Shown one piece after another: positions 3,979 through 42,198 of a stretch of 42,198 nucleotides of DNA (its first letter is position 1; each line of letters begins with the position of its first letter). This DNA comes from a virus (taxonomy: Duplodnaviria; Caudoviricetes): positions 1 to 42,198 of IMG/VR virus record IMGVR_UViG_3300048578_000205, one strand, 5' to 3'. The notes below the pieces were generated by a model. That model did not search any database and was not told where the DNA came from. It saw only the letters and a program-made list of their open reading frames with translations. The position numbers and the translations under genes are program-made.

Positions 3979-3982
3979 GGCT

Positions 3983-13194: not shown

Positions 13195-13421
13195 TAGAAG
13201 TTCACCCGGCGGGCGGAGCCTCGGCCTGCAAGGCCCAGTCTGCCGCGGAGTTCAGCGATGTAGCCGCGCAGCACGCCGACATTTTGCGCGTTCCATTCCA
13301 TAATCTTGTCGCCGTGACGCATCTTGGCGATGCCGCCGTTGACAATGATCGAATGCAGGGCGGTTTCCGCCTCGGCGAGTTGGGCCCGCCAGAGGGCGAT
13401 TTCGTCGGGCGAAGACATCAC
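13194..13421 (-). CDS. Head completion protein gpW-like
   Basis: 75 aa, LAEAETALH...LRGYIAEL; lies between terminase and portal as in lambda. Confidence 0.8.
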   Translation of the reverse strand: MMSSPDEIALWRAQLAEAETALHSIIVNGGIAKMRHGDKIMEWNAQNVGVLRGYIAELRGRLGLAGRGSARRVNF

Positions 13422-15454
13422 CGCCCCATGTTCAGCCGCGCCATGGCGGCGACGCTGGATGTTGCCTTCGGCTGCGGCACGCTGTCGGTTTCCTGTAGCC
13501 TGATCTTCGGCCTCGGGTGTCGCGGCTGGGCCGTATCAGAGATGCGCTGCACACCCAGCATGTAGGCGGCCGCATAGGCCATCGCCTCGCAGTCGAGGAA
13601 ATGGTTCTCCCGCGAGCGCTGGACCCACATCGAACCGCCGGACGGCTTCTTGACCCGACCCTCAGAGACGATCTGCCGGCAATAGGCCTCGGTCACATCG
13701 CTCGGCAGGTGCCAACCGCCCGGCTGGTCATCCGGCCAACGCACCCGCTCGTGCACCCAGGACTTGAAAAAATCGCTGTCGAGGCGAACCAGGTCGAGGC
13801 CGTATTTGGCGGCTTTGCCCTTCGGCGTCACGTCGATGCGCTTGACCGACAGTGGCTGGTCACGATGGTCGAACCCCTTCACCGCATAGGCGACACGGGC
13901 GTGGCGGCGGCAGAACTCGTAGACCCTGTGCTCCGGAACGTCATCCTTCTTGCCCGGCCGAAACCCTGAGTCGATGAAGGCGCGGCGGATCAGGAGATCT
14001 CCGATTGGACGCGCCAGCATTTCGGCGAGATCGGTCCACACATCCGCATGCTCGGTCTCGCCCCACAATTCGGCCTGCTCGATCAACCAGCTTTCCTGCC
14101 GCACCCCCCAGCCGCGGATCACGTAGACGAGCCGGTTCTTCTGCACATCGACGCCCACGGTCAGCAACAGGACACCGGACGGGATGTCGCGTGATTGATA
14201 CGGCAGCTTGAGCCGGGCGACATCAGCCCATTCCGGTGCGTCACCGCCGGCCGGCGCCCACAGTTCGCCGAACCCGCCATTGATGACGGTCTGAACCTCC
14301 TCCTGGTCGCCGGAATTGACCGCCTCGACATAGCGGCCGGCCCGCTCACCGAACGGCACAAACGGTGAGGCAAGGCCCGAGACCCAGAAGCTGACGGTGG
14401 TGCTCGCCGGCGGATCGCCCAGGACACGGCCGTCGGGTTCGATCCGCTGCCCAGGCGCCACGTAGGCGCCCTGGGCGTTCATCTCGAACTTGTGCTTCTC
14501 CTCGATGACACCGCCGCAGAGTGGGCATTGCAGGAAAGCGAACCGGCGGGCTTCGATCGGCGTCGCATCCCGTTCGATACGCTCCGTCCCGCCCTTCGGT
14601 GTGATGTCGATCTTCGGGATGACCAGACATTTAAACCGCGGGACGAAATAGTCCGCACAATGCGGGCATGGCCAAGCCCAGTGATACCGCGTCCCCCGCT
14701 GCCAGAGCTTCCAGATCGGGCTGTCGAGACCGGAAATGTCGTCCTGATCGACGACCTTCCAGAATTCCAGTCCGGTTGCCTCGTCTTTCTCGATTTCGAC
14801 CGTCCCCTCGGTCGGCGTCGATGTAACCCCGAGGGTAAAGTCCGCGTGCGTGTCGCCCCGGACCTCCAGCAACCGAACCGGGTCGCCTTCACCCTTGATG
14901 TTCTTGGCCATGCCGTCGCGCTCATCGACGATGGCCAGGCCGGCCGGGTCGGACTTGAGCTGGTTGGCCGAGCCCGCCCAGGCGAGCCGGACTGGCACGC
15001 CGGAGACGATCTTGCGGGTCTTCTTGTTCTTCTTGCCCCGCGCCAGCTTGATCGACAGGCTTGCCGAACGGTTAAGTGCGTCGTCGAACCGTGGTTCGAA
15101 CTGGTCGGTGACGAAGTTGCGGTCCGGGCCGGCATAGATGATCGGCACCGGTCGCTGGTCAAGCCGCGACAGGATCACATCGATGACACTATCGGTTTTG
15201 CCCATTTGACCGCCACAGACGAAGGCAACCGTGTTGTAGCTCGGGTCTTCGAATGCGCGCATGAACGGGATCATGTAGGGCGTCAGCGCGGGGTCCTTCG
15301 GGCCAGGCCGGCCCGACGACAACGGGTAGACCCGATTCTCCCGAGCCCATTGATCAGTCGGAATCTTCCTCGTCGGGCGCAGGATCCGCGTGGCCCGATC
15401 GATAAGAACCGCGAAGTTTTTCGATGCGGTCGGCCACCTCGGTGAGCGCGTCAT
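13418..15454 (-). CDS. Terminase large subunit (lambda gpA family); start uncertain
   Basis: Walker A GGQMGKT, Walker B IVDERD, STPT, GVDVQ, IDSG and NHFLDC motifs. Confidence 0.95.
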   Translation of the reverse strand: MTRSPRWPTASKNFAVLIDRATRILRPTRKIPTDQWARENRVYPLSSGRPGPKDPALTPYMIPFMRAFEDPSYNTVAFVCGGQMGKTDSVIDVILSRLDQRPVPIIYAGPDRNFVTDQFEPRFDDALNRSASLSIKLARGKKNKKTRKIVSGVPVRLAWAGSANQLKSDPAGLAIVDERDGMAKNIKGEGDPVRLLEVRGDTHADFTLGVTSTPTEGTVEIEKDEATGLEFWKVVDQDDISGLDSPIWKLWQRGTRYHWAWPCPHCADYFVPRFKCLVIPKIDITPKGGTERIERDATPIEARRFAFLQCPLCGGVIEEKHKFEMNAQGAYVAPGQRIEPDGRVLGDPPASTTVSFWVSGLASPFVPFGERAGRYVEAVNSGDQEEVQTVINGGFGELWAPAGGDAPEWADVARLKLPYQSRDIPSGVLLLTVGVDVQKNRLVYVIRGWGVRQESWLIEQAELWGETEHADVWTDLAEMLARPIGDLLIRRAFIDSGFRPGKKDDVPEHRVYEFCRRHARVAYAVKGFDHRDQPLSVKRIDVTPKGKAAKYGLDLVRLDSDFFKSWVHERVRWPDDQPGGWHLPSDVTEAYCRQIVSEGRVKKPSGGSMWVQRSRENHFLDCEAMAYAAAYMLGVQRISDTAQPRHPRPKIRLQETDSVPQPKATSSVAAMARLNMGR

Positions 15455-15878
15455 CCACTTCTCGCTGCAACAGCGCCCGCTCACCGATGTTGCGGGTCAC
15501 GCGCGCGGGAATCGCGTTCACGCGGGCCACAACGGCGCCGGCGACCTCGTCGACCAGCGTCATGGCCTCCGCCAACGGGACCAGTTCGCGCTCGGCCTGC
15601 GCGACCGCCAGTTCCTCCTTCCGCGTGCGAATGTCCTGCAGCCGGCTGTGGGACGCCGTCTTGCTCGACCGCCGTGCCTCGTCCTTGAGAAATCGAATGT
15701 AACCCTGGACGACGTCGACGACGCGGTAGCGGCCGCGATCAGTTTTGGCGATCCAGCCGTCCTTCGACAGTCGCCGGATCCACTCCGGCGTCACCATCAG
15801 GAGCTTGGCGGCGACATCGACGGCGATCGTACCGGCGGCGTCATGGGCTCCCGAATTTACAACAACTCGCGCCATCAC
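15354..15878 (-). CDS. Terminase small subunit (Nu1-like HTH plus coiled coil)
   Basis: AAKLLMVTPEWIRRLSKDGWI wHTH, then coiled coil; overlaps the 5' end of the large subunit. Confidence 0.85.
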   Translation of the reverse strand: MMARVVVNSGAHDAAGTIAVDVAAKLLMVTPEWIRRLSKDGWIAKTDRGRYRVVDVVQGYIRFLKDEARRSSKTASHSRLQDIRTRKEELAVAQAERELVPLAEAMTLVDEVAGAVVARVNAIPARVTRNIGERALLQREVDDALTEVADRIEKLRGSYRSGHADPAPDEEDSD

Positions 15879-18683: not shown

Positions 18684-19214
18684 TCAGCGCGGCAGCATGC
18701 GTGCGATCTCGTGGCCGATGCGCGCGACGATGTTGGCGACGCTGGCCTGCCACGCGGCTGCGCTCGTATCCTTCACCAACTCGCGCGCGACGTTAGGCCC
18801 ATAGACGCCACGGATCGGCAGCCGCTGCTTGGACCGCCGCAGGAACACGCGTCCAAACCTCGGCACGATGAACGAGTGCGCGAAGATACGTCGCTTGTTC
18901 CACGGCGCCGCCGACACGCCCTTGCCGCGCTGCACACCGCCGAACCAGGCGATGTTTGTTTCCCCACCGCGCGCCTTGAGCCGGTAGGTCAGCGTCGCCG
19001 ACGTCGAGTGGATCGTCGCCATCGCCTTGTCGATCGCGCCGTACTTGATCCCCGTCTGCTTGACGAGCGTCCGCTTGACCTGCGTGCGGCCTTTGTCACA
19101 TTCATGGTTCAACGCACGCGACATTGCAGTGCGGGCTTGCTTGTCGCCGAGAGCGGCGAGCTGATTGCCGTAGCGAGCCAGGACTTGATCGCGGGCGCTG
19201 ATGATCAAATGCAT
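18684..19214 (-). CDS. Minor tail protein Z-like (lambda gpZ-like) basic protein
   Basis: AMSRALN..., ...HSFI..., RLPIRGVYGPNV motifs; first gene after the putative late promoter. Confidence 0.65.
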   Translation of the reverse strand: MHLIISARDQVLARYGNQLAALGDKQARTAMSRALNHECDKGRTQVKRTLVKQTGIKYGAIDKAMATIHSTSATLTYRLKARGGETNIAWFGGVQRGKGVSAAPWNKRRIFAHSFIVPRFGRVFLRRSKQRLPIRGVYGPNVARELVKDTSAAAWQASVANIVARIGHEIARMLPR

Positions 19215-19256
19215 GTTGGGGTTCGTGCCGCGCGCGACTCTCGCGAGCTTGACGGC

Positions 19257-19316
19257 AAGATAGCCTCAGGAGCCCGGTTTTGTCTCGCCTCTCGATGTCT
19301 CACCGAAAAATGTCTC
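19257..19316 (-). promoter_or_regulatory. Putative late promoter with three GAGACA direct repeats at exact 15-bp spacing
   Basis: TGTCTC on + at 19281, 19296, 19311; on the minus strand the proximal GAGACA lies 18 bp upstream of TATCTT (19257-19262). Confidence 0.55.
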
Positions 19317-19435
19317 ACGCAGGGAATTTGCTTGACAACGAAGCGACGCGGCGATTGTCCACTCAATCCCGTTGGCAGCCATATTGATATGGCGCAGCGA
19401 GATGAGAGAATGCGCCAATCATTAATTCACTGCTG

Positions 19436-20116
19436 TCAGATGCGCGGCTCAGCCAGAGTTGCCGGAAGCGCCACCAGAATGGCGGCGAGACCAGCGAAGA
19501 AATCTTCCTGCGTAGCGTCGGATAGTGAACTGGCCACGAACGGTATCCAACGCTGAAAATGACCGTCGACAAAGGCGTATCTCTGCGCGAGGCGTTTATG
19601 GGCCGCATCAATATCGCCGGCTTGCAGGGCAAGCAGCGCTTCGCGCGTCAGGAACCAAAGAAACTCCAGTTCGATGCCGATGTAGTCGTCCGGCTCTTGG
19701 TTCAGCGCCTCGACGGCGAGGCCCGCTTCCAGATAACTCGCCCTGACCGAGAGCGTATCCTGCGTCATCAATGCCTTGGAGCGCGACAGATGGAAGGATG
19801 CGAACGGCACGACCGGCATTTGGCCTGGCCCCTCGAACAGTCGAGTGTACTCGATCCGCAACTTCTCGCCGAACTGGTCTGATTCCGCGATGCCGACCTC
19901 AACAGCATGGATCATCCGCCCAAGCCCTGCTGACGTTGGAGAAGCGCCGTCCAGGTCGACCGCGTCGATCCCACCTACGATGGCCAAGAACTCGTCAGTA
20001 AGGCCGCCGATAAAAAAACGGCGCAATAAGTCCAGAAGCCCTAGCTGCAATTGAAGAACGGACGCGCCCTGCGGCGCGTCCGTCAATGAATTGCGGGGGT
20101 GTGCGTTGTCAGTCAT
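19436..20116 (-). CDS. TorD/DmsD-family redox enzyme maturation chaperone
   Basis: EYTRLFEGPG..PVVPFASFHL, EPDDYIGIELEFL and HFQRWIP motifs. Confidence 0.9.
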   Translation of the reverse strand: MTDNAHPRNSLTDAPQGASVLQLQLGLLDLLRRFFIGGLTDEFLAIVGGIDAVDLDGASPTSAGLGRMIHAVEVGIAESDQFGEKLRIEYTRLFEGPGQMPVVPFASFHLSRSKALMTQDTLSVRASYLEAGLAVEALNQEPDDYIGIELEFLWFLTREALLALQAGDIDAAHKRLAQRYAFVDGHFQRWIPFVASSLSDATQEDFFAGLAAILVALPATLAEPRI

Positions 20117-20119
20117 TCA

Positions 20120-22972
20120 TCAAGCCTTGGTGATTTTGACGATCATGTCAGCGAAGGCCGGGAAGCCCATGATCGGCGACAGCGCGTCCGGATCAACCAG
20201 TTCGTTATGCAGTGGCGTGTAGGCGCGCGACTGATAGGCCGGGCCCATGCCGGGGCTGAACCGACCGCCGGCACCGAAGCCCATCTTGATCACGCCGGGC
20301 CGCATGCCGCCGGAGACGAACACCTTGCCCTTCGTCGACTTGCCGAGGGGATTAGCCACCTTCACAAGCATTCCGGTCTTTACGCCGAGCCGCTTGGCAT
20401 CGTCGGTGTTCATCCACACGGTGCCCACCGAGTAGGTGTTCTTGGCGAACTTCTTCTTCGACGTCTTCATCGGCTCTTTGCCGGTCGGCTGTGCGTTCGG
20501 CACCTCTGCCTCGAAGGCATCGTTGACAGGTTGCCACGTGCCTTCGGCCTTGATCTCCCCGAGCCAAGGCAGCATCTGCGTGCCGCTCATGGCATGGTGA
20601 GTCTTGCCGCAGATGAGCTGGAACGGATAGTCCTTGGCGTACTTCTTGTAGTCCGGATTGGTGTGGGGATTCCACACCGTCTCGAACCAGTAGAACGTGC
20701 TCGGGTATTTGTTGAAACCGACCCGCTTCAGTCCGAGGGGTACCTCGCCTTCGGCTTTCTCGATCTTCTCGTTGTAGGAACGGTAGTGGCCGAAGCGCTT
20801 GTCGCCCTCCTTCCAGTCGAACTTGAATTCGATGCGGCGGGTCGAGGTCGGCGGGAAGACGCCATTCGGCTCGTCGGCGGAGACCTTCTTGTAACGCCGC
20901 CAGCTCATCGGCCAGACGGCGACGCCCTTGTTCTGGCGCAGCCACTCGACCGTCAGCGGCTTGCCCTGGATGACCTTGCGCTGGTCGTCGATCTTCACTT
21001 CACCCTTTTCCAGGGACTCGGGCGTCCCGAGGATCGTGTAGCCCTCCGGATATTGCGGATAGGGCAGTGGCGTGCCGATGTTGGCGCGGCCGGGGGCCGG
21101 TGCCAGCATCTCGTTGACGAAGTCTTCTTCGGTCTTGTACTTGCCCCAGAAGTCCTCCGCCTTGAGGTCGGTATCGCCAAGATCGGCGAGCCGCTTCGCC
21201 AGCAGGTTCATGATCGTCGTCGGATTCTTGCTCTCGTGGAGAGGTGCGATGACGGAGTCACGATTGTAGATCAGCGGGTGCGACGGATAGATGTCGGACA
21301 CGCTCTGGCGTTCGGCGTAGCTCGCCTCGGGCAGCAGAACGTCGGCATAGAGCGCGCTTTCGAGGTACAGCGTGTCGATGCAAACAAACAGGTCGAGCAG
21401 ATAGTTTCCGCTCTTGTCCTTGGCGGTGACCGCCTGCTGCCACTTGTACGGTGCGCTGCCGGTGTAGATGCTGTTGCCGGTGCGCAGAATGTAAGCCTTG
21501 ATCGGGTACTTGTGGCCGCGGAAGGCGCCGTAGCGAATGTCGACGCCCTTCATCATGGCATCCGGATAGGCCGCGACCGCATCGTCCCATGCGGCCGGGA
21601 ACTTGCTGCCGAACAGGTCCATATGGAGGTGTTCGACCTCGCCTTCGACTTCCTTGCCGGCGATGACGCGCTTGATCTTGCGCTTGGTGAACTGCCGTCC
21701 CGTGGCGCTGCCGCCCTTCGAGGACTTCACGATCTCCGTGTCGATGGCGCCGCCAGGCACGTCGAAATTACCGGTGATGACGTTGAGGGCGACGCCGATG
21801 ATCGAGGCGCAGTAGCCATTGAAGTGATGTCCGGGCGACTGCATGCCCCACACCAGCGCCGCCGGCTTGGTGATGCCAAACATGTGGGCGAGATCGGTGA
21901 TCTGCTTCGCCGTAAGTCCGGTCCGGTTCGCCGCCCACTCGGCACTGAAATAGTTCAAGCCGTTGACGGGATCCTTCTTGCCCCACCACGACTTGAACGC
22001 GGCCTCGAACTCGTCCCAACCGACCGAATATTTCTTGAAGCTCAGGTCGATGTACTTCTTGTTTGGATCGTTCTGGTTGTCGTTCTCGAGGATGTAGCGC
22101 AGCATCGCTCCGAACAGATCACCATCGGTTCCAGCGCGCGGCGCAAGCCACACGTCGGCCTTGGCCGCCGTGTTGCTGAGCGAGGGATCGATCACGACGA
22201 CCTTGCAGCCGGCCTCGACCTGCGCAGCGACGGTTCCATAGCTCTCATAGGCGATACGGGTGGCGACGAAGGGGTTCCAGCCGTTGTAAATGATCAGCTT
22301 GCTGCGATGGGTCCGATCCCATTTGAGGCTGCCATCCGACTGACGGACGAGCTGCGGCCGCATGATGTCGGGCTCGATACGCTTGCCGTTGAGCATCAGC
22401 TTCGGGCCGTGCCGGCGCGGCGTGTCGCAGATTGCGCCGTGTTCGGTGCAGTTGGGCGTGCCATAGGCGAAGAACAGACGCCAATAGTGGTCTCGGTCGG
22501 TGACGTCACCTGAATCCATGATGACGGATTCGGCGCCGTGCTTCTTCTTGATGTCGCGCAGACGCGTGGCGATGTAGTCGATCGCCTCGTCCCAGGAGGC
22601 CCGGCGGAACTTGCCTTCGCCGCGCTGGCCAACGCGGATCATCGGATACTTCAACCGATAGGGCGAATAGATCAGCTGCTGGCCAGCAGCGCCCTTGGCG
22701 CAGCAGGTGCCATCGTTGAGCGGTACCGCCTTGTTGCCGTAGATCTTCGCCACTTGGCCGTCCTGGACCCAAATTTCCATGCCGCACTCGGCCGGACACA
22801 TGACGTCGGCGGTGTAGCGGATGGTGTACTTGCCGGCTTCGGCTTGGATCGCCTGCGCCTCGGACGGCGACAGTACCTTCAGGGACATGAGGCCGGTCTG
22901 TTCCAGCGCGCCCACACCCAACAGGCTGGCGGTGGATTTCAGGAAGGTCCTCTTGGAGATGTGCATGTTCAT
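20120..22972 (-). CDS. Tat-exported DMSO-reductase-family molybdopterin oxidoreductase catalytic subunit (Psr/Arr-related clade; candidate AnrA-like antimonate reductase)
   Basis: SKRTFLK Tat motif; DVMCPAECG...CCAKG FS0 site; RLKYPMIRVGQRGEGKF; EHGAIC Mo-ligand Cys; ADVLLPEASYAER; C-terminal molybdopterin-binding domain. Confidence 0.93.
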   Translation of the reverse strand: MNMHISKRTFLKSTASLLGVGALEQTGLMSLKVLSPSEAQAIQAEAGKYTIRYTADVMCPAECGMEIWVQDGQVAKIYGNKAVPLNDGTCCAKGAAGQQLIYSPYRLKYPMIRVGQRGEGKFRRASWDEAIDYIATRLRDIKKKHGAESVIMDSGDVTDRDHYWRLFFAYGTPNCTEHGAICDTPRRHGPKLMLNGKRIEPDIMRPQLVRQSDGSLKWDRTHRSKLIIYNGWNPFVATRIAYESYGTVAAQVEAGCKVVVIDPSLSNTAAKADVWLAPRAGTDGDLFGAMLRYILENDNQNDPNKKYIDLSFKKYSVGWDEFEAAFKSWWGKKDPVNGLNYFSAEWAANRTGLTAKQITDLAHMFGITKPAALVWGMQSPGHHFNGYCASIIGVALNVITGNFDVPGGAIDTEIVKSSKGGSATGRQFTKRKIKRVIAGKEVEGEVEHLHMDLFGSKFPAAWDDAVAAYPDAMMKGVDIRYGAFRGHKYPIKAYILRTGNSIYTGSAPYKWQQAVTAKDKSGNYLLDLFVCIDTLYLESALYADVLLPEASYAERQSVSDIYPSHPLIYNRDSVIAPLHESKNPTTIMNLLAKRLADLGDTDLKAEDFWGKYKTEEDFVNEMLAPAPGRANIGTPLPYPQYPEGYTILGTPESLEKGEVKIDDQRKVIQGKPLTVEWLRQNKGVAVWPMSWRRYKKVSADEPNGVFPPTSTRRIEFKFDWKEGDKRFGHYRSYNEKIEKAEGEVPLGLKRVGFNKYPSTFYWFETVWNPHTNPDYKKYAKDYPFQLICGKTHHAMSGTQMLPWLGEIKAEGTWQPVNDAFEAEVPNAQPTGKEPMKTSKKKFAKNTYSVGTVWMNTDDAKRLGVKTGMLVKVANPLGKSTKGKVFVSGGMRPGVIKMGFGAGGRFSPGMGPAYQSRAYTPLHNELVDPDALSPIMGFPAFADMIVKITKA

Positions 22973-23005
22973 GGATCTGACTCCGAAATCGTTCGCTGGC
23001 TACTG

Positions 23006-23674
23006 TTACGCGGGGTTCACGGTGGCATTGGCCGCCTTGAACACGTCCTGGTCGGACGCGATGTAGTAGACGCGAGGCGAGGTCCCATATTCTTCGTGCA
23101 GGACTTTCACCTTTTCGGACTTGATGAGCTTGGCGATCCGGCTTTCGGGGTCGTTGACGTCGCCGAACACGATTGCCTGGCCGAAGCAGTTGCGGACGCA
23201 GGCGGGCTCTTCCAAGCCCGCTTCGAGGCGTGTCAGGCAGAAGTCGCATTTGTCGACGACGCGCAGGTCCTTGACCGGCTTGTTCTTGAGTGCCGGGACC
23301 TTGGCGTAGAACGGCTTCGGGTCGTTCTTGACCGGAATGCTTTCATGCAGATAGCGGGCGCCGTACGGACAGCCGGCGATGCACTGGCCGCAACCGATGC
23401 ACAGGTCACGATTGACGGCGACAATGCCGTCCTCGCGCTTGGTGGTCGCACCGGGAACCGGGCAAACCATCACACAGGGTGCAGTGTCGCATTGATTGCA
23501 GACGAGCGGCAGGAAGTGACGCTTTGCGTTCGGGAAGTCACCGACATCGGCAATGGATACCCGTGATCGGAAGGTCCCGACCGGGACACCGTTTTCCATT
23601 TTGCAGCTGACTTGGCACGACGTGCAGCCGACGCAGCGGCGCAGGTCGATGAGCATCGCGTACTTTTTCGCCAT
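23006..23674 (-). CDS. 4x[4Fe-4S] electron-transfer subunit (DmsB/NrfC/ArrB family)
   Basis: CVGCTSCQVSC, CNQCDTAPCVMVCP, CIGCGQCIAGCP and KCDFC...PACVRNC; GGGGAG RBS. Confidence 0.95.
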   Translation of the reverse strand: MAKKYAMLIDLRRCVGCTSCQVSCKMENGVPVGTFRSRVSIADVGDFPNAKRHFLPLVCNQCDTAPCVMVCPVPGATTKREDGIVAVNRDLCIGCGQCIAGCPYGARYLHESIPVKNDPKPFYAKVPALKNKPVKDLRVVDKCDFCLTRLEAGLEEPACVRNCFGQAIVFGDVNDPESRIAKLIKSEKVKVLHEEYGTSPRVYYIASDQDVFKAANATVNPA

Positions 23675-23850
23675 TGGCTCCCCCGTTCGTCTGTGCCGCG
23701 CGACTACGGGGGGCGTCGCCGACCAGCGGCTGAAATTACAAGCGACGAAGATGAACTCATGGGTCTAGCAAACTAACAATGCGGTACGTCAAAATCGTTC
23801 CAAAGTGAGGCTCGGCCAAATGCTCCCGTTGAATTTAAGGCATCAAAACA

Positions 23851-23991
23851 CCTCACGTTCGTTGCGCCGTGGCAGAGGGAATCCAACCCGAGGAGTTGAG
23901 ACTGGTGATGCTGCTGGCCATTCCTACTCTCGGCTTGCCTACCGCGGTCAGAACTCTGACCTGGATTGATGATATTTTGGGTTTCGAATAG
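23851..23991 (+). pseudogene. 3' remnant of a carboxymuconolactone decarboxylase/AhpD-like gene
   Basis: Frame reads PHVRCAVAEGIQPEELRLVMLLAIPTLGLPTAVRTLTWIDDILGFE*; in-frame stops at 23830 and 23836 upstream remove the N-terminal half. Confidence 0.65.
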
Positions 23992-24145
23992 CAGCAGGCG
24001 GACGACTGCGTCGGGTTGTTTGTGTCGGAAACGACCATCTTGCTGCGTGAGCCCGCGTCTGAAGCTTCCTATGACCGGACAAAGCCTGACGTGCTGGGCA
24101 ACAAAGCGATTAGCCGACTTCCGCCGTTTAGTGGATCGCGCCATG

Positions 24146-24580
24146 CTATCCGAGCCCATCCATCATCGCCCCGATCACGCGCCGTGACGGCTTCGCCGAC
24201 CCCCTTCGCCCATTGAGCCGCCACGCGATCAGACTGAGCGCGAATTGCCAACGCCGATGCGCGGTCGCTCGCGAGATCCCGAAGCGCCAGCAAATCGCTT
24301 TCCACGGCGTACGATCCGACCGCGCCCAGACGAGCTTGACGTCGTCGGCCGTGAGCCAGCGCAGCCAGGCGAGCGCCTCCTCCATCCGGCTGATCGCGGT
24401 GGGCGACGGTGGCGGCAGCCGCATTGGCTCCAGCTGTTGACCAACGAGGTCGGCGAATTCGACGACCATAGACGGCCAGGTGTTGAAGTAGCCAGGGATG
24501 CGCACCGCCGGCAGGCGGCGCATCACGGCGGCGGCTTCGGCGAGACGTTCCTCAACCATCTCGGCGGTCCAGTTATCCAC
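24146..24580 (-). CDS. DUF6362-type HTH protein, putative late-gene regulator
   Basis: WTAEMVEERLAEAA.VMRRLP, PSPTAISRMEEAL.W, WKAICWRFGISRATAHRRW; GTG start after AAGGAG. Confidence 0.85.
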   Translation of the reverse strand: MDNWTAEMVEERLAEAAAVMRRLPAVRIPGYFNTWPSMVVEFADLVGQQLEPMRLPPPSPTAISRMEEALAWLRWLTADDVKLVWARSDRTPWKAICWRFGISRATAHRRWQFALSLIAWRLNGRRGSAKPSRRVIGAMMDGLG

Positions 24581-24773
24581 GGCTTGTCTCCTTGCGCTCC
24601 GGTGTGTTTCCGTAGAGCTTCTCGCCAAGCTGCCGGACCAACTCCCGCTCGGGCCAGGTCAGTCGCTGGTCATCGATTGAGACGGCGAGCACGCCCTGCT
24701 CTCGCCAGCCCTCGCGCTTGACCTCCTCTGCCGGACGGCGCCTGCCGCCATAGCCGCGTGGTGCCCACCTCAT
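24573..24773 (-). CDS. Conserved small phage protein
   Basis: MRWAPRGYGG.RR..EEVKREGW...ERELVRQLGEKLYG; overlaps both neighbours. Confidence 0.8.
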   Translation of the reverse strand: MRWAPRGYGGRRRPAEEVKREGWREQGVLAVSIDDQRLTWPERELVRQLGEKLYGNTPERKETSRG

Positions 24774-25027
24774 GGCGTCACCTCCGGCAGCAGGGTGACG
24801 TAGCCGATGACGTCGAGGATGCTGTCGCGGTGCCTCGGATCCCGAGCGAGGCGTGCAAGCTTGAGTTCGATCATGCACAGGACGACCTGTGTCGGCGTCA
24901 CTGTGTGGCCCAGCGTTAGCGACCAGCGCGCGGCGATCGCCGCCATGGACATCGCAGCGTGGCCATAGGCCATGCTTCGCTCGTCCATGATCGCGGCCGC
25001 GTCCCGGAGAATCTGATCGGAGGTCAT
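24770..25027 (-). CDS. DUF6378-type small protein
   Basis: ER...YG, VVLCMIELKLARL, H.DSILDVIGY. Confidence 0.8.
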   Translation of the reverse strand: MTSDQILRDAAAIMDERSMAYGHAAMSMAAIAARWSLTLGHTVTPTQVVLCMIELKLARLARDPRHRDSILDVIGYVTLLPEVTP

Positions 25028-25362
25028 GCGCTGACCTCCGCTGCGGTTTCTCCCGCTTGGCTTGCGGCGGCCATCAGGTCGACGACGGCGCCGATGATCG
25101 AGGCGGGTTCGGCGTTGCCGAGCCGGCCCATGCTGGCCGCAAGATCACGGGGATCGACACCGTGCTGAATGAGGCAGGACATCACCACACAGCCGTCGGC
25201 GAGAAGCGCGTCGAGGCTCGATCCCGTCCGCATCCCGTGAGTGAACACCTCTCCGGGGCGTCCGTCGGGATAGAACCCGATCGTCACGGCAAAGCGCGTG
25301 CCGCCATGCTCGACGCTCACAGTCTCGGCGGCACGGCGGTCGGGCAGTCTGACCCGGGTCAT
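25024..25362 (-). CDS. TSCPD-domain protein (stand-alone class II RNR C-terminal-like domain)
   Basis: RLPDRR...VTIGFYPDGRPGEVF...S.LIQHGV...SIIGAVVD. Confidence 0.8.
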   Translation of the reverse strand: MTRVRLPDRRAAETVSVEHGGTRFAVTIGFYPDGRPGEVFTHGMRTGSSLDALLADGCVVMSCLIQHGVDPRDLAASMGRLGNAEPASIIGAVVDLMAAASQAGETAAEVSA

Positions 25363-25823
25363 CGCACGCCCCCCTGGGTCTCGATCGCCCACAGCAGGAT
25401 CGCGATCGCGTCGGCCTCGTTGTCGTCGGCGGGATTGAACCCGCGGCTGCGGACCGCGGCGATCACGGCCGCTTTGTCGGCATTGCCCTTGCCGGCGATG
25501 AAGCGCTTGATCGTGCCGACGGGGACTCCCTGGTAGGCGATGCCGTGGTGTTCACACCAGATGGACAGGACAGCAAGCCATCCCCCATAAGCATGTGCGG
25601 CGTCGACCCCCGCATGCCTGCGCACCTGTTCGTAAGCGACCAGATCGAACCCACCAGAGACATTCTTGATCTCTGTCAGCCACTGCTTGAAGCGAAGGAA
25701 ACGCATCCCCCCGCCCTGCCACCGATCGATCTTGAACTTGGCCGTGCCGCTGGTAATTGACCCGTCGCCGGCGCGGATGGCCCAGCCTGTCAGCTGGCCA
25801 AAATCCAATGCCAGGCACTTCAT
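25359..25823 (-). CDS. RuvC-like Holliday junction resolvase
   Basis: LALDFG..TGWA, YEQV, VGTIKRFIAGKGNADK, DDNEADA acidic catalytic motifs. Confidence 0.88.
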   Translation of the reverse strand: MKCLALDFGQLTGWAIRAGDGSITSGTAKFKIDRWQGGGMRFLRFKQWLTEIKNVSGGFDLVAYEQVRRHAGVDAAHAYGGWLAVLSIWCEHHGIAYQGVPVGTIKRFIAGKGNADKAAVIAAVRSRGFNPADDNEADAIAILLWAIETQGGVR

Positions 25824-26416
25824 TGGAGATGGCCCCAGTTGTGGCCCGCCAGGATCCTGAACACCGATCGCTTGTGCAGGCCAAAGCCATCGGCGATCAC
25901 GGACCGTGGGATTCCGATCGTCTTCATGCGACGGATCGACTTGACGTCGACATCATCGAGGCGGGACATGGGATTGCGAGCACCGAGCAGTGCGGTGCCG
26001 TGCTCTCGGCAATCGCGAAGGTTTTCGCTCTGGGTCGCCCAGCGTAGGTTGCTGGCGTGGTTGTTGGTCCGACTGCCGTCGTTGTGCGCCACCCGATGGC
26101 CCGCGGACGGCTGAGGACCGTGGAACGCCATCGCCACGAGACGATGAACGTCGATCCGGACTTGGACGCATTTTTGCGACAAGCAGACCGAGAAGTAGCC
26201 CGTCTTCCGGTTGCGCAACTGTCGCAAGATTCTCCCGACGTGTGCCCCACACGCAGATCCCACGCGGCGCACTTCGCCGGCGTCGGAGACTTGGTACTCA
26301 GGCCAGCCGGGAATACTGCGCCATTCGGCGCAGGTGTCGGAACCGACACCGGGCAAAACGATCGCTGCGGCCGGCTTGGCCGGCGACAGCGCGAAATCGA
26401 GATTGCTGTTCATCAC
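25820..26416 (-). CDS. NUMOD4-HNH homing endonuclease
   Basis: EWRSIPGWPEYQVSDAGEVR (NUMOD4), VHRLVA..F...VAHNDG.RTNN..SNLRW (HNH), C-terminal HTH. Confidence 0.9.
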   Translation of the reverse strand: MMNSNLDFALSPAKPAAAIVLPGVGSDTCAEWRSIPGWPEYQVSDAGEVRRVGSACGAHVGRILRQLRNRKTGYFSVCLSQKCVQVRIDVHRLVAMAFHGPQPSAGHRVAHNDGSRTNNHASNLRWATQSENLRDCREHGTALLGARNPMSRLDDVDVKSIRRMKTIGIPRSVIADGFGLHKRSVFRILAGHNWGHLQ

Positions 26417-26570
26417 GAAGGCTCACGGAGCGTGGGCCTTCGGCTTTGGTCGGGGACGAAATTACGGCTGGCGAGTCTCCACGATCAAGCAAAAAGGAAT
26501 GGGCACGGTACGAAATCGACGGATCGGGCCATGAGTCGGCGAGTCCGGTGTCCGGAAGATTTCTATCGGC

Positions 26571-26842
26571 GTGTCACCAACCCCCCTCAAAGGTTGGTGA
26601 CACCGCTTTGTGTAGATATTTCAATTGGCTACATCGATGTGTCACCAACCTCGGTGTCACCAACGGGGTCCAAACATATTCGTATAGGAAATGTATGAGT
26701 CCGGCACGGACATCCTTTTCCCCGCGTAATGTATGAAAAGGTTGGTGACGTTGGTGACGTTGGTGACACCGTTGATCTGTCAGCACTTTTCGTGTCACCA
26801 ACCTCTGTTGGAGGTTGGTGACACCGTCGAGGTTGGTGACAC
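26571..26842. repeat. Iteron-like array, ten copies of GTCACCAAC in both orientations; putative replication origin
   Basis: Copies at 26573, 26641, 26656, 26794 (+) and 26593, 26741, 26750, 26759, 26814, 26832 (reverse), flanking AT-rich spacers, just downstream of primase/VapE. Confidence 0.85.
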
Positions 26843-26849
26843 ATCTGGC

Positions 26850-26874
26850 AAAAAAAAGAGCGCCTGAAGGCGCC
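26850..26874 (-). terminator. Intrinsic terminator after the primase/VapE gene
   Basis: Minus strand GCGCC-ttca-GGCGC followed by TCTTTTTTTT. Confidence 0.7.
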
Positions 26875-26898
26875 TAGTCTAAATAATGGAACTGTGTT

Positions 26899-29427
26899 TC
26901 AACGACGGTATCGCCACTCGCGTGGGGCGTCGCGCCCGCTTCCGATCCGACCTTGGTAGCGCTGCCAGCCTCGGGTCTTGAGATACGCCGTCACCCGCAT
27001 CTGGTCGGCTCGACCCCACCGCCCGATTTCGATACCCAGCGCGCCTTCAAGGATCTCGCCCACCGACACGTCGACCAGCGGGTTCGATCGCTCGGCCTCC
27101 TCGTCATGCCAGTCGTCGTAGTTGGCATAGCCATGGTTCACGCGGCGTCGCTCGAACACCAGCCAACGATCGATGCGGGCGTCCCAAGCGTCGGACTGGT
27201 AGCGCGCGTCCTGCTCGACACTGGCGGCGGTCATCAGAGCCGGATCATCAATCCACCAGATGGCACCGGCATTGAAACGGGCGACGGCTTCGGCCCATAG
27301 CTGGTCGCGGTCGCGGCGAAGAGCATCGAGATCGATCGTGCCGCAGCGTACCGGCCAGAAGCGGCGGTTGCCGGTCTCATCGCGCAGATAGGTCTCCGGA
27401 TTGACGCTGCCGGCGAACACGCACTGGCGCGGCACCTCGACGACATAGCGTTCGTAGGGTGGCCGGTAGCGATCGGTCGTACGAGTCAAAAATGCCTTGA
27501 TCCGAGACACTTCAGCTCGGCTGATGGCATCGAGTTCGGCGATCTCGATAATCCAGATGCCGCGCATCTGCTGGGCGGCGTCCTTGCTGCCGATTTCGGC
27601 CAGTTCGTCGGTGAACCACTCCGCGCCGGCAAGCAGTTTGATGGCGCTCGACTTCTTTGTCCCCTGCGGCCCTTCCAGGATCAGCATGTGGTCGGCTTTG
27701 ACGCCGGGCCGCATGATGCGGGCAACGGCCGAGATTGCCCAGAGCGCGCCGAAGGCGCGGTTGAGTGTCGTGTCAGCCGCGCCCAGATAAGTCAAAGTCC
27801 AGGCCTCGAGACGCGGAACCCCATCCCAGGCCAAGCCATTCAGATAATCGCGGACCGGATGGATCCGGATGTCACGCGCAACCGCTGCGACGCTGCGGCT
27901 GACAATGGGAGGGGCGACATTGATCTCACGGTGTTGCAGCCATTCGGCGCAACGCACATCGTCCGCATCGCTCCATGGACGCGGCAGGACACTGTGCTGG
28001 TCCCATGGCAGGGCTCGCGCGACCAGAATCTCCTGGCGGAACTCATCGAACAAGAGCGCGCCGGCGAAGGCCTCGTCGTTGGAGAGTGCAACGATGACGT
28101 TCGCTTCATTGCGCTCGGGCGTGCCGACGAGATCAAGACGCAGTTGGTTCGCCCAGCGCGGCCGAACCGGCCGGTGGTGGATGTTGCCGGTCGTGTTCAA
28201 GCGCCGACGCAGCTCGCTGATCTGCCTCTCCAGGATCGAAACAGCGATGCCGGTGGCGGTCTTTATCGCTGCCAATACCTGGCGCTCGGGCAGGGGTTCC
28301 AGCCGGGCCAAGACGAGTTGCCCGAGCAGACTGCCGAGAACCGTAAGATCAGGTGGGTTGCTCAGGGTGCGGGCGGCCGCTTCGAACTCTGAAGCAGTGC
28401 TCAGGACGGCCGGCGTGCTGACAGGCGCTGGCCCCGCCCCCTGGTAGTCGGCGGCCGTCGCGCCATGACGCAAATCATCGGCGAAGTCGTCGCCATGCAG
28501 CGGCGTGACAATCTCATTGGCGATGCCGGCGATATTGAGCCGGTCGGCCAGGGCGGCGGCGCCCTGTATGCCCGCTTCGCCGGCATCGGCGAAGATAGTG
28601 ACGCGGTTGATGCCGTCCGGCCATTGCCAACGTCGCAGTCCGTCGGCGGACAGCGCGGCCCATGCCGGCAAGCCGAAGATCATCGCCGCGGCCAGCGCCG
28701 TCTCGATACCCTCGGCGATCCCGAGATGGCGGTCTTCGCCTACGGGCAAGAGCCGAACCGAGCCGCCCGCAACGGTGCCGAGCATCTTCTTGCCCGGCGG
28801 GGCTTTGCCTGACCCGTCGTCGAGCAGATAGGTGCGATGGATGCCGCCGGTCGGCTCGCCGGTGCCGTTGCGGATTAGCGCCACCATGCCGGGCCAGCCG
28901 CGGCGGGTCTCGAAGTCGGCGAGGTCGGGATTGGAAAGGAGATCTGGGGAGGCCGGATCGCGCAGGAGACGGCCGTGCAGGTAGCGTTCGGCCGCTGAGC
29001 CGGCGAGCGGTGCGCAGCCGGCGAGGATGCGGGTAATCTCGTGGCTGTGGTCGGCCTTTGCCGAAACCGTAGACCGTGGCGGAGCCGGGCCGTCCAGACG
29101 CGCCCGCCGGGCCGCTTCCTCAAACAAGGCGGCACGAGTGAGACCCGTCGAATGATGAATCAGGTCGATCGGACCGGCGCATTCGCCGGTCGCGTGATCG
29201 TAGCCCCAGCCGGCGCGCGGGCCGCGTAAATGAATGACGCAGGAGCCCTCATTGCGCGGCGGCCGGCCGGACAGATCGGCACAGCGCAGAGATTTGCGGT
29301 CGGCGGACAGGCGCGCCTGCGGAAACAGCGACGGCAGCCAGTCTGGCGCGGTGGCGGCAAGTCGCTCGCGCACTTCGTCGAGGTCGTACCGAACCGGTGG
29401 TTGCCAGACGTCGTTGAGATCGATCAT
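26899..29427 (-). CDS. Toprim primase fused to VapE-family helicase/ATPase
   Basis: GIHRTYL, GIAEGIETAL, IFADAG (Toprim); LILEGPQGTKKS, IEIAELD, YLRDETGNRRFWP (VirE/VapE). Confidence 0.93.
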   Translation of the reverse strand: MIDLNDVWQPPVRYDLDEVRERLAATAPDWLPSLFPQARLSADRKSLRCADLSGRPPRNEGSCVIHLRGPRAGWGYDHATGECAGPIDLIHHSTGLTRAALFEEAARRARLDGPAPPRSTVSAKADHSHEITRILAGCAPLAGSAAERYLHGRLLRDPASPDLLSNPDLADFETRRGWPGMVALIRNGTGEPTGGIHRTYLLDDGSGKAPPGKKMLGTVAGGSVRLLPVGEDRHLGIAEGIETALAAAMIFGLPAWAALSADGLRRWQWPDGINRVTIFADAGEAGIQGAAALADRLNIAGIANEIVTPLHGDDFADDLRHGATAADYQGAGPAPVSTPAVLSTASEFEAAARTLSNPPDLTVLGSLLGQLVLARLEPLPERQVLAAIKTATGIAVSILERQISELRRRLNTTGNIHHRPVRPRWANQLRLDLVGTPERNEANVIVALSNDEAFAGALLFDEFRQEILVARALPWDQHSVLPRPWSDADDVRCAEWLQHREINVAPPIVSRSVAAVARDIRIHPVRDYLNGLAWDGVPRLEAWTLTYLGAADTTLNRAFGALWAISAVARIMRPGVKADHMLILEGPQGTKKSSAIKLLAGAEWFTDELAEIGSKDAAQQMRGIWIIEIAELDAISRAEVSRIKAFLTRTTDRYRPPYERYVVEVPRQCVFAGSVNPETYLRDETGNRRFWPVRCGTIDLDALRRDRDQLWAEAVARFNAGAIWWIDDPALMTAASVEQDARYQSDAWDARIDRWLVFERRRVNHGYANYDDWHDEEAERSNPLVDVSVGEILEGALGIEIGRWGRADQMRVTAYLKTRGWQRYQGRIGSGRDAPREWRYRR

Positions 29428-29437
29428 GCATGATCCC

Positions 29438-30760
29438 TCAACCAAGGATCACAAGCCCGCGTTCGGCGCGAGTAATGACGGTGTAGAGCCAACGACGGCG
29501 ATCGAGTTCCGAGCGGCCGAGGCCGTCGTCCCACACGATCACGTTTTCCCATTGTGAGCCCTGCGACTTGTGCCCTGTAATCGCCCAGCCGAATGTCGCC
29601 TCGGTCAATAGCCTCTTCTCTTTCCAGTCGCGGTCATGACGATGCTTGTCGAATGCGATGTGGTCCTCGAAGTGACCCTTGTAGATACGCAGACGCCCGG
29701 GTTTGCCGTCAGGGCTGGGAGTACCGATCTGGTTGCCCTCCTCATCGGTGACTGTGGCTGAAAAGTAGAGGCTGCCCTCGTCGACGATGTCGTCCAGGGT
29801 GACGAACATGCCGTTGATCAGACCAAGATCGTTCTGGTTCTTCAGGCAGATGATTTTCTCGCCATTACCGGTCGGCAGCCACCCATCATCATATCCAGCG
29901 GCTCGGCGCATGGCGTTGTTGAGCTGCATCCTCGTCGCGTTCATGCCGCAGATGACCTGACCGCCGCGTAGCGCCTGTTCCGGCGTCACTTCCTGCTTGC
30001 GCATTTTCCACACAAAGGTGTCGTACTGGCCAAAACCGATCGGCTCGCCCTGCCGCGCCATGGTGGCGAGCCGTATGATGGCGCTCTCGCGCGCCTGCCG
30101 GTGGATCTCGGTCAGCATGATATCCGGCGCGTCCTTGGTGAACGCCCCATCGCCCTTGATCGGCGGGAGCTGGCCGGGATCGCCGAGGACCAGAATCGGC
30201 TTACCGAAGCTCATCAGGTCGCGGGCCATCTCTTCGCCAACCATCGACACCTCGTCGAGCACAATCAGCCGGGCGTGTGCCGCGTCGCTTTGCGGATTGA
30301 GCGCAAAGCGTGGCTTCTTCATCGCCGACAGTGCCTGCCGCATAGCCTCGATCGCAGCCTCCGCGGCGGTGCGCTCAAATCCTGCGAGCCGACGAGCCGC
30401 CTTCTCGGCTTCTTCAATCTTCCCGGCCGCCGCCGCGACTTCCTCCTCGGTCGCCTCAATGACGCTGTAAATCAGACTGTGAATGGTCCGGGCCGGGGTG
30501 CCTTTCCGGCGCAGCACCAGCGCCGCCTTTCCGGTGAAGGTGGCGGTGACGACGCCAGGCACGCACTCGCCGCCGTCACGGTTGCTCTTATGCGATTCGA
30601 GCCCGAGTTCATTGAGTACATAGCGCAGGATGGTGCTCTTGCCGCATCCGGCATAACCGAAGATTCGTGCCACCTGCTTCTGGCATGTCTCGTTCTTGAA
30701 CCAATGAATAATGCGCTTGACGCCAGCCCATTGCTGGTCGGTGAGCGTGATATCGGTCAT
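29438..30760 (-). CDS. RecD/Dda-like superfamily 1 helicase
   Basis: GYAGCGKS, VLDEVSMV, LGDPGQLPP, EIHRQ, AITGHKSQGSQW, YTVITRA. Confidence 0.93.
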   Translation of the reverse strand: MTDITLTDQQWAGVKRIIHWFKNETCQKQVARIFGYAGCGKSTILRYVLNELGLESHKSNRDGGECVPGVVTATFTGKAALVLRRKGTPARTIHSLIYSVIEATEEEVAAAAGKIEEAEKAARRLAGFERTAAEAAIEAMRQALSAMKKPRFALNPQSDAAHARLIVLDEVSMVGEEMARDLMSFGKPILVLGDPGQLPPIKGDGAFTKDAPDIMLTEIHRQARESAIIRLATMARQGEPIGFGQYDTFVWKMRKQEVTPEQALRGGQVICGMNATRMQLNNAMRRAAGYDDGWLPTGNGEKIICLKNQNDLGLINGMFVTLDDIVDEGSLYFSATVTDEEGNQIGTPSPDGKPGRLRIYKGHFEDHIAFDKHRHDRDWKEKRLLTEATFGWAITGHKSQGSQWENVIVWDDGLGRSELDRRRWLYTVITRAERGLVILG

Positions 30761-32150: not shown

Positions 32151-32359
32151 TCGCCGCGCTCCCAAAAGCCGCCGGCCAGCGCGATACAACGCAGTTTGTG
32201 TTCCTGCGCTGATGTCAGCATGATGCGATCGCCATAAAGGCTCATTCTCTCGCGCAGGCTCGCGCAGAACTCGATCTCGAAATCCGTCTCGGCGTTGGCC
32301 TCAGCCGCTTTGAGCAATGCCTGCAGATCCGGGCCGTCGTGGTTCAGGTCGATGGTCAT
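32138..32359 (-). CDS. Small hypothetical protein
   Basis: AGGAGG RBS; 73 aa MTIDLNHDG... Confidence 0.7.
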   Translation of the reverse strand: MTIDLNHDGPDLQALLKAAEANAETDFEIEFCASLRERMSLYGDRIMLTSAQEHKLRCIALAGGFWERGECSI

Positions 32360-32368
32360 GGCACCCTC

Positions 32369-37840: not shown

Positions 37841-37904
37841 TCGATACCTCCACGGCTTTGCCGCTTCACGTGAAGTCGTCAAAGGCAGCTTGCTTGAGCC
37901 ACAT

Positions 37905-37919
37905 GTTCACTATATGTTC
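37905..37919. promoter_or_regulatory. Alphaproteobacterial LexA (SOS) box GTTC-N7-GTTC
   Basis: GTTCactatatGTTC, a perfect match, in the divergent XRE/topoisomerase intergenic region. Confidence 0.8.
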
Positions 37920-37962
37920 TCTGCGTCGTGCTGTCGAATCGATTCTTCCAACCGAGCCCGTC

Positions 37963-40792: not shown

Positions 40793-41235
40793 CCGACACC
40801 GTCCTGGCCCAATTGGCCGCGCTGAAGACCGCGCCGATCGGCGCGCTGAAGCAGAAATGGCATGATCTCTTTGAGAACGAACCGCCGCCTTACAACCGAC
40901 GATTCCTCGAGCAGCGTATTGCCTACCGCATTCAGGAGTTGGCCTACGGCGGCCTCAAGCCCGAAACATTGAAGCGTCTGCGCGCCATCGCCGAGGATAT
41001 TGAGCGAGGAACGACCGGCCGCCGACGACAGTCACCCGATAGCCGGCCCGTAGCAGGCACGCGCCTCATTCGTGAGTACCAGGGCGTCGAGCACTGCGTG
41101 ACGGTGCGCGCTCAGGACTTTGAATACCAGGGCCGGCCGTACAAGTCGCTCTCGGCAATCGCGCGCGCAATCACTAGCACGCGATGGAATGGACGCGCCT
41201 TCTTTGGCTTGAAGAACTGGCGGCGCGCGTCATGA
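40789..41235 (+). CDS. DUF2924-type protein
   Basis: RIAYRIQELAYGGL, GTRLIREYQG..H.V, YKSLSAIARAIT.TRWNG..FFGL; GGAGG RBS, TTG start. Confidence 0.88.
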   Translation: MTDTVLAQLAALKTAPIGALKQKWHDLFENEPPPYNRRFLEQRIAYRIQELAYGGLKPETLKRLRAIAEDIERGTTGRRRQSPDSRPVAGTRLIREYQGVEHCVTVRAQDFEYQGRPYKSLSAIARAITSTRWNGRAFFGLKNWRRAS

Positions 41236-42198
41236 AGAATCCCATCGTCCGTAAACTGCGCTGCGCGGTCTACACCCGCAAGTCGACCGAAGAAGGGCTG
41301 GACAAGGAATTCAACACGCTGGATGCACAACGCGAGGCTTGTGAATCGTACATCGCGAGCCAGAAACCCGAGGGCTGGGTCCTGGTCCCTGACCGCTATG
41401 ACGACGGTGGTTTCTCGGGTGGCTCACTGGATCGGCCGGCATTGCAACGGTTGCTCGGCGACATTGAGGCGGACCGCGTCGACGTGATCGTCGTCTACAA
41501 GATCGACAGGCTCAGCCGATCGCTGATGGACTTCGCCAAGCTGGTCGAGGTGTTCGACCGCAACAGCGTAACCTTCGTCAGCATCACCCAGTCCTTCAAT
41601 ACGACCACGAGCATGGGACGCCTGACGCTGAACATCCTCCTCAGCTTCGCCCAGTTTGAACGTGAAGTCATCGGCGAACGTATCCGCGACAAGTTCGCGG
41701 CGTCGCGCAGGAAGGGCATGTGGATGGGCGGGTCGATCCCGCTCGGCTACGATGTCCAAAACCGCAAGCTGGTCGTCAATCAAGCTGAAGCCGCGACCGT
41801 GCGAATGATCTTCGAGCGCTTCGTCAAGGTCGGCTCGGCAACCAAAATGGTACGGACGCTCCAGGCCGAGCACGTCTGCGGCAAGCGGGGAAAGCTGGTC
41901 GAAAAGGGCTATGTCTACAGGCTGCTCAACAACCGGACCTATATCGGCGAGGCCGAGCACAAGGGAAACGTCTATCCGGGCGAGCATCAGGCCATCATCG
42001 ACCGCACCCTCTGGGATCGGGTGCACACGATAATGCGCGAAAGCCCACGTAAGCGAGCCGCGAACACACGTGCGCAGACGCCCTCGCTGCTCAAGGGTCT
42101 GATCTTCGGCCCGACCGGCCGGGCGATGACGCCGGTGCACACCCGTAAGAGAGGCAGGCTCTATCGCTACTACGTTTCGGCCGACGTGCTCAAAGACA
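41232..42198 (+). CDS. Large serine recombinase (integrase), truncated by window edge
   Basis: ATG 41232: RCAVYTRKSTEEGL..., YDDGGFSGG, VYKIDRLSRS, FAQFEREVIGERIRDK; absent from the ORF track because there is no stop in the window. Confidence 0.95.
   Translation, partial: MKNPIVRKLRCAVYTRKSTEEGLDKEFNTLDAQREACESYIASQKPEGWVLVPDRYDDGGFSGGSLDRPALQRLLGDIEADRVDVIVVYKIDRLSRSLMDFAKLVEVFDRNSVTFVSITQSFNTTTSMGRLTLNILLSFAQFEREVIGERIRDKFAASRRKGMWMGGSIPLGYDVQNRKLVVNQAEAATVRMIFERFVKVGSATKMVRTLQAEHVCGKRGKLVEKGYVYRLLNNRTYIGEAEHKGNVYPGEHQAIIDRTLWDRVHTIMRESPRKRAANTRAQTPSLLKGLIFGPTGRAMTPVHTRKRGRLYRYYVSADVLKD

Follow-up and report, generated by a model that had tools for sequence, protein, structure and literature searches.

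The stretch of DNA considered here (the window) is a linear virus record of 42,198 nucleotides (IMG/VR record IMGVR_UViG_3300048578_000205, Caudoviricetes), 61% complete, in which a cassette of three genes for a molybdenum-dependent reductase and its chaperone, here called B, A and D, is embedded among phage genes. In the order of transcription these are B (23006..23674), A (20120..22972) and D (19436..20116), all on the minus strand and together 4.2 kb long; their frames are open, as claimed in a preliminary description of this DNA, which had reported three intact genes on one strand at these positions. B encodes a protein of 222 residues with 16 cysteines and a 4Fe-4S dicluster domain (Fer4_11), an AnrB-like electron-transfer subunit with four 4Fe-4S clusters, the closest PDB matches of which are PsrB (2vpw_B) and ArrB (6cz7_B). 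The product of A, an AnrA-like catalytic subunit of 950 residues, contains three molybdopterin oxidoreductase domains above cut-off (PF04879, PF00384, PF01568) and combines the Fe4S4, molybdopterin and dinucleotide-binding domains with the fold of the dimethyl sulfoxide (DMSO) reductase family, the enzymes that carry a molybdenum bis-pyranopterin guanine dinucleotide (Mo-bisPGD) cofactor. D encodes an AnrD-like maturation chaperone of the TorD/DmsD type with 226 residues and a nitrate reductase delta (TorD) domain (PF02613); profile comparison matches it to TorD (1n1c) and DmsD (3efp), the matches to the named TorD/DmsD families being weak. A 22-nt inverted repeat with a 4-nt loop (window 20047-20094), located at the coding start of D, could affect the expression of this gene.

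No clear membrane helix is seen in the cassette proteins (the top hydropathy values over 19 residues are 1.4, 1.2 for B, and 1.7), and B is devoid of both a signal peptide and a membrane helix. The N-terminal export signal of A reads S-K-R-T-F-L-K, which is the twin-arginine motif with Lys-Arg in place of the two arginines. The position of this lysine is occupied by arginine in 147 of 156 homologues and by lysine in five, and lysine is common to A and its two closest relatives. Signals of the K-R type can be exported by the twin-arginine translocation (Tat) system. The earlier designation of A as a Tat-exported protein is to be qualified: the signal being K-R and not R-R, export itself is a prediction. 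The Fe-S motif of A is D-x2-C-x3-C...C (D56/C59/C63/C91), with aspartate in the first place, and C182 is the likely molybdenum ligand; the HxxIC motif (H178, C182) and the acidic stretch SGDVTDRDHY both appear as had been described.

The enzyme family of the catalytic subunit

The A protein very probably belongs to the Anr family. It is 92% and 89% identical to two unnamed proteins, 81% to a protein from a betaproteobacterial metagenome-assembled genome (MAG), 78% to a protein of Rhodoferax ferrireducens and, over its full length, 62% to WP_069702695.1 of Desulfuribacillus stibiiarsenatis, as against 24% to an ArrA-like protein; in the available text of PMC10100899, lineages with at least 40% identity are treated as families. 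The family to which A belongs is a separate group of proteins of about 950 residues, represented in Nitrospirota, Desulfobacterota, Bacillota, Chloroflexi and Betaproteobacteria. A phylogeny of A had been proposed as a check; in a FastTree phylogeny of 42 sequences with DmsA as the root, which left out the characterised ArxA, SrrA and TtrA as well as the Geobacter SVR enzyme, A and the D. stibiiarsenatis protein share a clade with a support of 1.0, and the nearest neighbours of A are betaproteobacterial sequences, but the node that unites the whole family against the outgroups is weak (0.70). The residues G155, D156, D159, H178, C182, D183 and R186-R187-H188 are invariant in all 156 homologues, including the D. 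stibiiarsenatis enzyme.

The predicted structure of A (mean predicted local distance difference test score, pLDDT, 88.2) is closest in fold to ArrA (6CZ7), followed by PsrA (2VPW). ArrAB of Shewanella ANA-3 (6CZ7), the best structural match (E 1.5e-42, TM 0.64/0.74), has in common with the phage enzyme the Cys ligand after HxxxC and the soluble AB pair, but the structural identity is 17% and A is about 100 residues longer than ArrA. The PsrA/PhsA/SrrA type (2VPW) provides the best PDB match of A by sequence (E 1.7e-39), and both are Cys-ligated, whereas the phage cassette has no C subunit and has B before A. The acidic G-D-x-T-D, found in place of the G-R-Y of ArrA, would likely suit a substrate other than arsenate.

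Several other assignments of A were tried and rejected: ArrA (122 bits against a cut-off of 1600, with G-D-V aligned to the G-R-Y of ArrA), PsrA/PhsA/SrrA (247 bits against the PhsA cut-off of 694, and no gene for a membrane C subunit), TtrA (79 bits against 1750, SrdA being outside the comparison) and DmsA (198 bits against a family cut-off of 778). ArxA was rejected on the basis of its motif, with SGDVT standing where xGRGW would be expected; there was no ArxA model among the matches.

The gene neighbourhoods of the bacterial relatives are informative. At 24 loci from genomes, B precedes A in all 23 testable cases and D follows A in all 21, and at least two of the genes for a phosphonate-binding protein (X), a kinase (S) and a sigma-54 regulator (R) are found near 17 of the 24; at 29 loci from metagenomes, the respective counts are 23 of 24, 21 of 23 and 8 of 29. 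PhsC, DmsC and six phage marker proteins were encountered at none of these 53 bacterial loci, and NrfD was not found among the 55 neighbour proteins scanned. The absence of a membrane anchor, to which attention had been drawn, is true of the cassette but is common to the bacterial loci examined, that is, a norm of the family and not a peculiarity of the phage version. A NapC-type gene lies just upstream at three genome and three metagenome loci (6/53), a NapH-type gene lies downstream at some, and permeases of the ACR3/ArsP type adjoin some loci of the family. One locus (L002:3370-16760) comprises three tandem molybdoenzyme operons, which encode a sister paralogue at 47%, a family member at 77% and an ArrA-like enzyme; the 47% paralogue defines a small sister clade (P0207-P0209).

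We take the X-S-R plus B-A-D layout of the relatives to be that of anrXSRBAD. The comparison of the cassette with anrBAD, made in the preliminary description on the strength of a B-A-D order with no C subunit, is sustained by the order seen both in the window and in the relatives. With the 62% identity to the D. stibiiarsenatis protein, the B-A-D order and the X-S-R genes of the relatives, an Anr-like assignment, as opposed to Arr, Psr or Ttr, is upheld. With Anr systems the cassette has in common the full-length similarity to the D. stibiiarsenatis enzyme, the active-site residues and a B-A-D arrangement with no anchor. The differences are that the Anr relatives carry X, S and R, the last a sigma-54 activator, whereas the cassette lacks both X-S-R and a sigma-54 box, and that the phage version sits in a prophage slot and has the K-R signal, Tyr245 in A and Tyr145 in D. 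That no regulator stands beside the cassette had been stated correctly, X-S-R being absent from the window; the betaproteobacterial loci L003 and L008 also lack X-S-R nearby, within a limited flank.

A variable cargo slot in a prophage

Upstream of the cassette are RuvC-like, primase, helicase and DUF6362 genes, and downstream of it are neck (phrog_27), ParB-methylase, terminase, portal, capsid and baseplate genes. The upstream border of the slot is formed by the gene for the DUF6362 protein (24146..24580, minus strand; PF19889), likely a regulator of late genes, the Atlas look-alike clusters of which carry Sigma70_ECF (12% of members) or antiterminator Q (47%). The downstream border is the gene for a tail completion/neck protein (18684..19214, minus strand; phrog_27), 92% identical to that of the related locus L028. 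Two scans with the genes bordering the slot yielded 31 related loci, and both borders are present in 17 of these, where they are separated by 155-2,798 bp as compared to about 4.9 kb in the window; neither B, A nor D occurs at any of the 17. The sister phages L028 and L029 are 90-91% identical to the window at the nucleotide level upstream, until 24154, and 86-88% downstream from 19418, so that the similarity in blastn restarts 18 bases past the stop codon of D; weak similarity extends past 24154 to about 24010, which leaves 19419..24010 as the dissimilar cargo interval. In L028 and L029 the slot contains an open reading frame of 137 codons, and in L034 it is just 155 bp long.

The interval between the DUF6362 and neck genes is, then, a variable cargo slot, and the cassette, as would be typical of a moron, is inserted between genes that are adjacent in related phages. 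Comparison with related prophages devoid of the cassette had been suggested as a check, and at the 17 loci the slot is indeed small or otherwise filled. The location given in the preliminary description, inside the phage and between the late regulator and a late promoter/cos region, is accurate with respect to the DUF6362 gene and a late-promoter-like element (see below), but a cos site was not located, and the terminase genes are about 3.6 kb away. Other cargo in the same slot includes a Fic-domain gene (L031:749-1873) and a gene of the beta-lactamase family (L054:6168-7742).

No repeats are found at the cargo boundaries among the repeats shown, and no target duplication or attachment site was found. 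The codon fit to the phage core is 0.76 for A and 0.71 for B (A and B in the order listed) and lower, 0.54, for D, and the GC content of the cassette is 0.608 versus 0.635-0.653 in the flanks; given the fit of A and B to the phage and the modest difference in GC, composition is weak evidence. The host is probably an alphaproteobacterium; a protein of a Pseudorhodoplanes MAG shares a 90% cluster with one of the phage proteins, and the best DNA matches are to Shinella (72-75%).

Two records from another assembly bear on the continuity of the prophage. L001 is 100% identical to the window over 22015-32972 and spans the upstream junction; it ends inside A, at window 22015, and we guess that the presence of a second, nearly identical A gene in the other assembly might account for the break. 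L177 is 99.98% identical to window positions 1-5123 and continues beyond the left end of the window with tail fibre, sheath, tape measure, gpU, gpD and family-108 endolysin genes, followed by host-type genes (LacI, isomerase, dehydrogenase, DctP); a gene with a radical-SAM domain (L177:8436-9770) lies between its tail fibre and sheath genes. The whole prophage is estimated at 57-58 kb. With an integrase, head, tail and lysis genes and an integrated state, as indicated by the host-type genes on the overlapping record, it is a temperate tailed phage. Exact look-ups of 21 window proteins placed 15 of them, namely A, B, D and 12 phage proteins, on 6-8 JGI contigs each, with the longest contig (565,831 bp) in common; five have no exact record and one is on a single short contig. 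Matches in sequencing read runs are to contigs of relatives, none of those listed spanning a junction.

It is very improbable that the window is an assembly chimera of a chromosomal operon and phage DNA. The second record does stop inside A at 22015, leaving the downstream junction to the window alone, but the upstream junction is identical in this second assembly, the phage genes to either side of a single slot are colinear with those of the sister phages, and the cargo and phage proteins share their contig counts and longest contig.

Mechanism, expression and decay

We tentatively favour, at a little short of an even chance, the interpretation that the intact B-A-D operon, likely coding for an antimonate reductase of the Anr type, has been placed in a swappable slot and lets the lysogen reduce antimonate, Sb(V), in the periplasm. 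The D chaperone would mature A in the cytoplasm using Mo-bisPGD made by the host, and the folded A-B pair would be exported by the host Tat system via the K-R signal of A. As the enzyme has no membrane anchor, a quinol dehydrogenase of the host would have to supply the electrons: those of the quinone pool would reach B via an enzyme of the NapC/CymA or NapGH type and pass from the four clusters of B through the Fe-S cluster of A to the molybdenum bound by Cys182. The sensor genes of the donor would have been left behind at capture, so that transcription would start in the 320-bp leader or result from read-through from the upstream phage operon. Expression is the weak link of this mechanism.

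Several observations weigh against antimonate reduction by the lysogen. On the coding strand upstream of B, no sigma-70 promoter is found (there is one site on the opposite strand versus 1.4 expected), and the leader contains neither a sigma-54 nor an FNR box. Tyr245 of A occurs nowhere else among 198 homologues (Arg in 186, Lys in 7, 4 unmatched), and D differs at 4 of 34 conserved columns, as against a median of 0 over 38 stretches; the His of the PxDH motif is one of the four. WP_069702695.1 is a putative AnrA, an accession for AnrA being absent from the available text of PMC13284237, PMC12183865, PMC11521347, PMC8032467 and PMC7317101; no publication was found by accession. The Geobacter SVR enzyme does not occur by name among the best 120 entries of three homologue lists. 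The additional records probably represent the same lysogen and not independent captures, and, among the records readable, the downstream junction is covered by the window record only. No other phage with a member of the family was found among 2.9 million viral contigs searched with family-wide patterns, a set from which records close to the window may be absent, so that only this lineage is seen to carry the cassette. To our knowledge, Sb(V) activity comes from only two strains, the enzymes of which are about 60% identical to A or at an unknown distance from it.

The leader upstream of B (23690..24010, minus strand; about 320 bp, GC 0.545) is unique to this phage and is a possible promoter region; small open reading frames in it have no Pfam match. 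Of 47 relatives, 18 have a sigma-54 pattern ahead of B; it is absent from the five closest loci of the proteobacterial type, among which one has an FNR-type box and two have a divergent LuxR gene. Near-identical pieces from run X4 (e.g. 11 differences in 696 bases), which may stem from different organisms, lose their match at 23689 and 19435, that is, 15 bp above the start of B and at the stop of D; given these ends, the native leader seems to have been lost. The same positions suggest that the captured segment began at the ribosome-binding site of B and ended with the stop codon of D.

A less favourable possibility is that the cassette is a passenger in early decay, captured with neither promoter nor sensor, silent or poorly matured and of no benefit. 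We consider this unlikely, though far from negligible. In its favour are the lack of a recognisable promoter, the apparent loss of the native leader, the unique Tyr245, the four changes of D at conserved sites and the confinement to one lineage. Against it, none of the three frames is interrupted over 4.2 kb, and A conforms to the family at each of 258 near-invariant columns; at 400 conserved columns it has 6 departures (median 6.5). The branch of A is about as long as that of its closest relative (0.05 vs 0.04). Tyr245 aligns to the helix that follows the cofactor loop and not to a known ligand. The change of D at the PxDH motif is His145 to Tyr; the His is found in 37 of 38 homologous stretches and in the solved TorD and DmsD, and three other runs show a His codon at 19684. 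The changes Tyr109-to-His and His145-to-Tyr are, however, reciprocal, and might compensate each other; we found no publication on this chaperone His. B departs from 8 of 106 conserved columns (median 1), mostly in common with its closest relatives. Because the comparison sets are rich in Nitrospirota, these departure counts are inflated.

Downstream of the cassette, a late-promoter-like element (19238..19286, minus strand; GAGACA-N18-TATCTT...TCGCGAGAG) precedes the neck gene and is likely the late promoter; it recurs in 4 of the 31 related loci (L028, L029, L034, L057), the pattern having been drawn from the same loci in which it was counted. The cassette, with this likely late promoter downstream of it, would be outside the late transcript. 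Alternatively to a function in the lysogen, the genes could be read after induction as the tail of the early/middle operon and provide an extra electron sink to the lytic cycle under anoxia. The cassette has the orientation of the replication and regulator genes, which it immediately follows, and lies upstream of the late-promoter-like element, with no terminator found between it and those genes; this would fit such a possibility. We nevertheless deem it improbable, as maturing and exporting a 950-residue metalloenzyme before lysis would presumably be slow and costly, and as the cargo of L031 faces the opposite way, which makes the slot independent of read-through. In L048-L052, where the neck protein is 92-93% identical, the DUF6362 gene is swapped for that of an unrelated regulator of about 187 residues along with a TTGAC-type promoter; the joint replacement of regulator and element indicates that they move as a module.

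The identity of the electron acceptor is a separate matter. According to the available text of PMC13284237, PMC12183865 and PMC11521347, AnrA is the enzyme employed by D. stibiiarsenatis for Sb(V), or is listed as an Sb(V) reductase of the DMSO reductase family. The cassette could, instead, encode an active periplasmic reductase for another acceptor, such as an oxyanion of selenium, tellurium or sulfur. The family perhaps extends over more phyla than one would expect from antimony-rich sites, several substrates are represented in the related PsrA/PhsA/SrrA lineage (PMC10100899, in the text available), and one locus has two paralogues of the family, at 47%, beside an ArrA-like operon. This option appears quite unlikely, since the surroundings of the molybdenum ligand are identical in 156 of 156 homologues, the D. 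stibiiarsenatis enzyme among them, and since ACR3/ArsP-type permeases adjoin some of the loci. The AnrA of D. stibiiarsenatis MLFW-2 was reportedly described by Abin and Hollibaugh in 2019, and the anrXSRBAD cluster of Geobacter sp. SVR is said to have been described by Kambara et al. in 2024.

Other features and the meaning of a phage-borne reductase

Elsewhere in the window, lambda gpA-type terminase large and small subunits are encoded at 13418..15878 (minus strand; PF05876, PF20454, phrog_57), and a large serine recombinase, the integrase (Resolvase and Recombinase domains), is encoded at 41232..42198 (plus strand), truncated by the window end. A second large cargo gene (37711-40389, plus strand), located beside DUF2924 and recombinase genes, codes for a type IA DNA topoisomerase with a C-terminal DUF5710. 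Between the head genes and the tail genes there is a gene for a neutral zinc metallopeptidase (7125-7865, minus strand), which has a GC content of 0.54 and a poor codon fit and is likely a moron. The replication region contains two NUMOD4-HNH endonuclease genes (25820-26416 and 30757-31422, minus strand), and an origin is possibly marked by inverted repeats of about 30 bp, two pairs of which follow closely after the primase-helicase gene (26571-26845). A direct match of 28/30 between A (21652-21681) and the RuvC-like gene (25487-25516) is perhaps due to chance.

A search of 50,697 phage records returned 25 weak matches, none covering 80% of A; plasmid records likewise gave none covering 80% of A, and viral structures none matching at E 0.001. 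The top match among the phage records, the one of the 25 that was inspected, is dmsABC (L095:10673-15902), located beyond the integrase among chromosomal genes of E. coli, so that the 'dmsA' moron label of PHROG 7800 may rest partly on host flanks. No publication on a prophage with a DMSO reductase was found in a search that most subscription papers lie outside. The arxS, arsH and aioB genes have been noted on viral contigs in the available text of PMC12044158. Morons and metalloid auxiliary genes of this kind (PMC12044158; PHROG 7800 'dmsA') resemble the cassette in being genes of host metabolism on phage DNA, but those in the available text of PMC12044158 are single accessory genes and not a whole terminal reductase, whereas the phage cassette is internal and occupies a slot with alternative cargo.

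The enzyme family is already known; it is the phage vehicle that appears to be new. Respiratory enzymes attributed to phages are often host flanks included by prophage callers, whereas the present operon lies within the phage, at a site that is empty or differently filled in sister phages. The broader proposition, that a functional temperate phage brings in an entire terminal reductase in the form of a moron, that infection alone makes a proteobacterium an Sb(V) reducer and that phages help to spread the family across phyla, appears to us possible but doubtful. A compact, sensor-free anrBAD unit would make it possible to test if a set of three genes is enough for Sb(V) reduction, and which host protein donates electrons to an enzyme with no anchor. 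Should the cassette be active, a virus would, unusually, hand its host a new terminal electron acceptor, and there would be a route for the spread of antimony reduction, a process that alters the mobility and toxicity of antimony.

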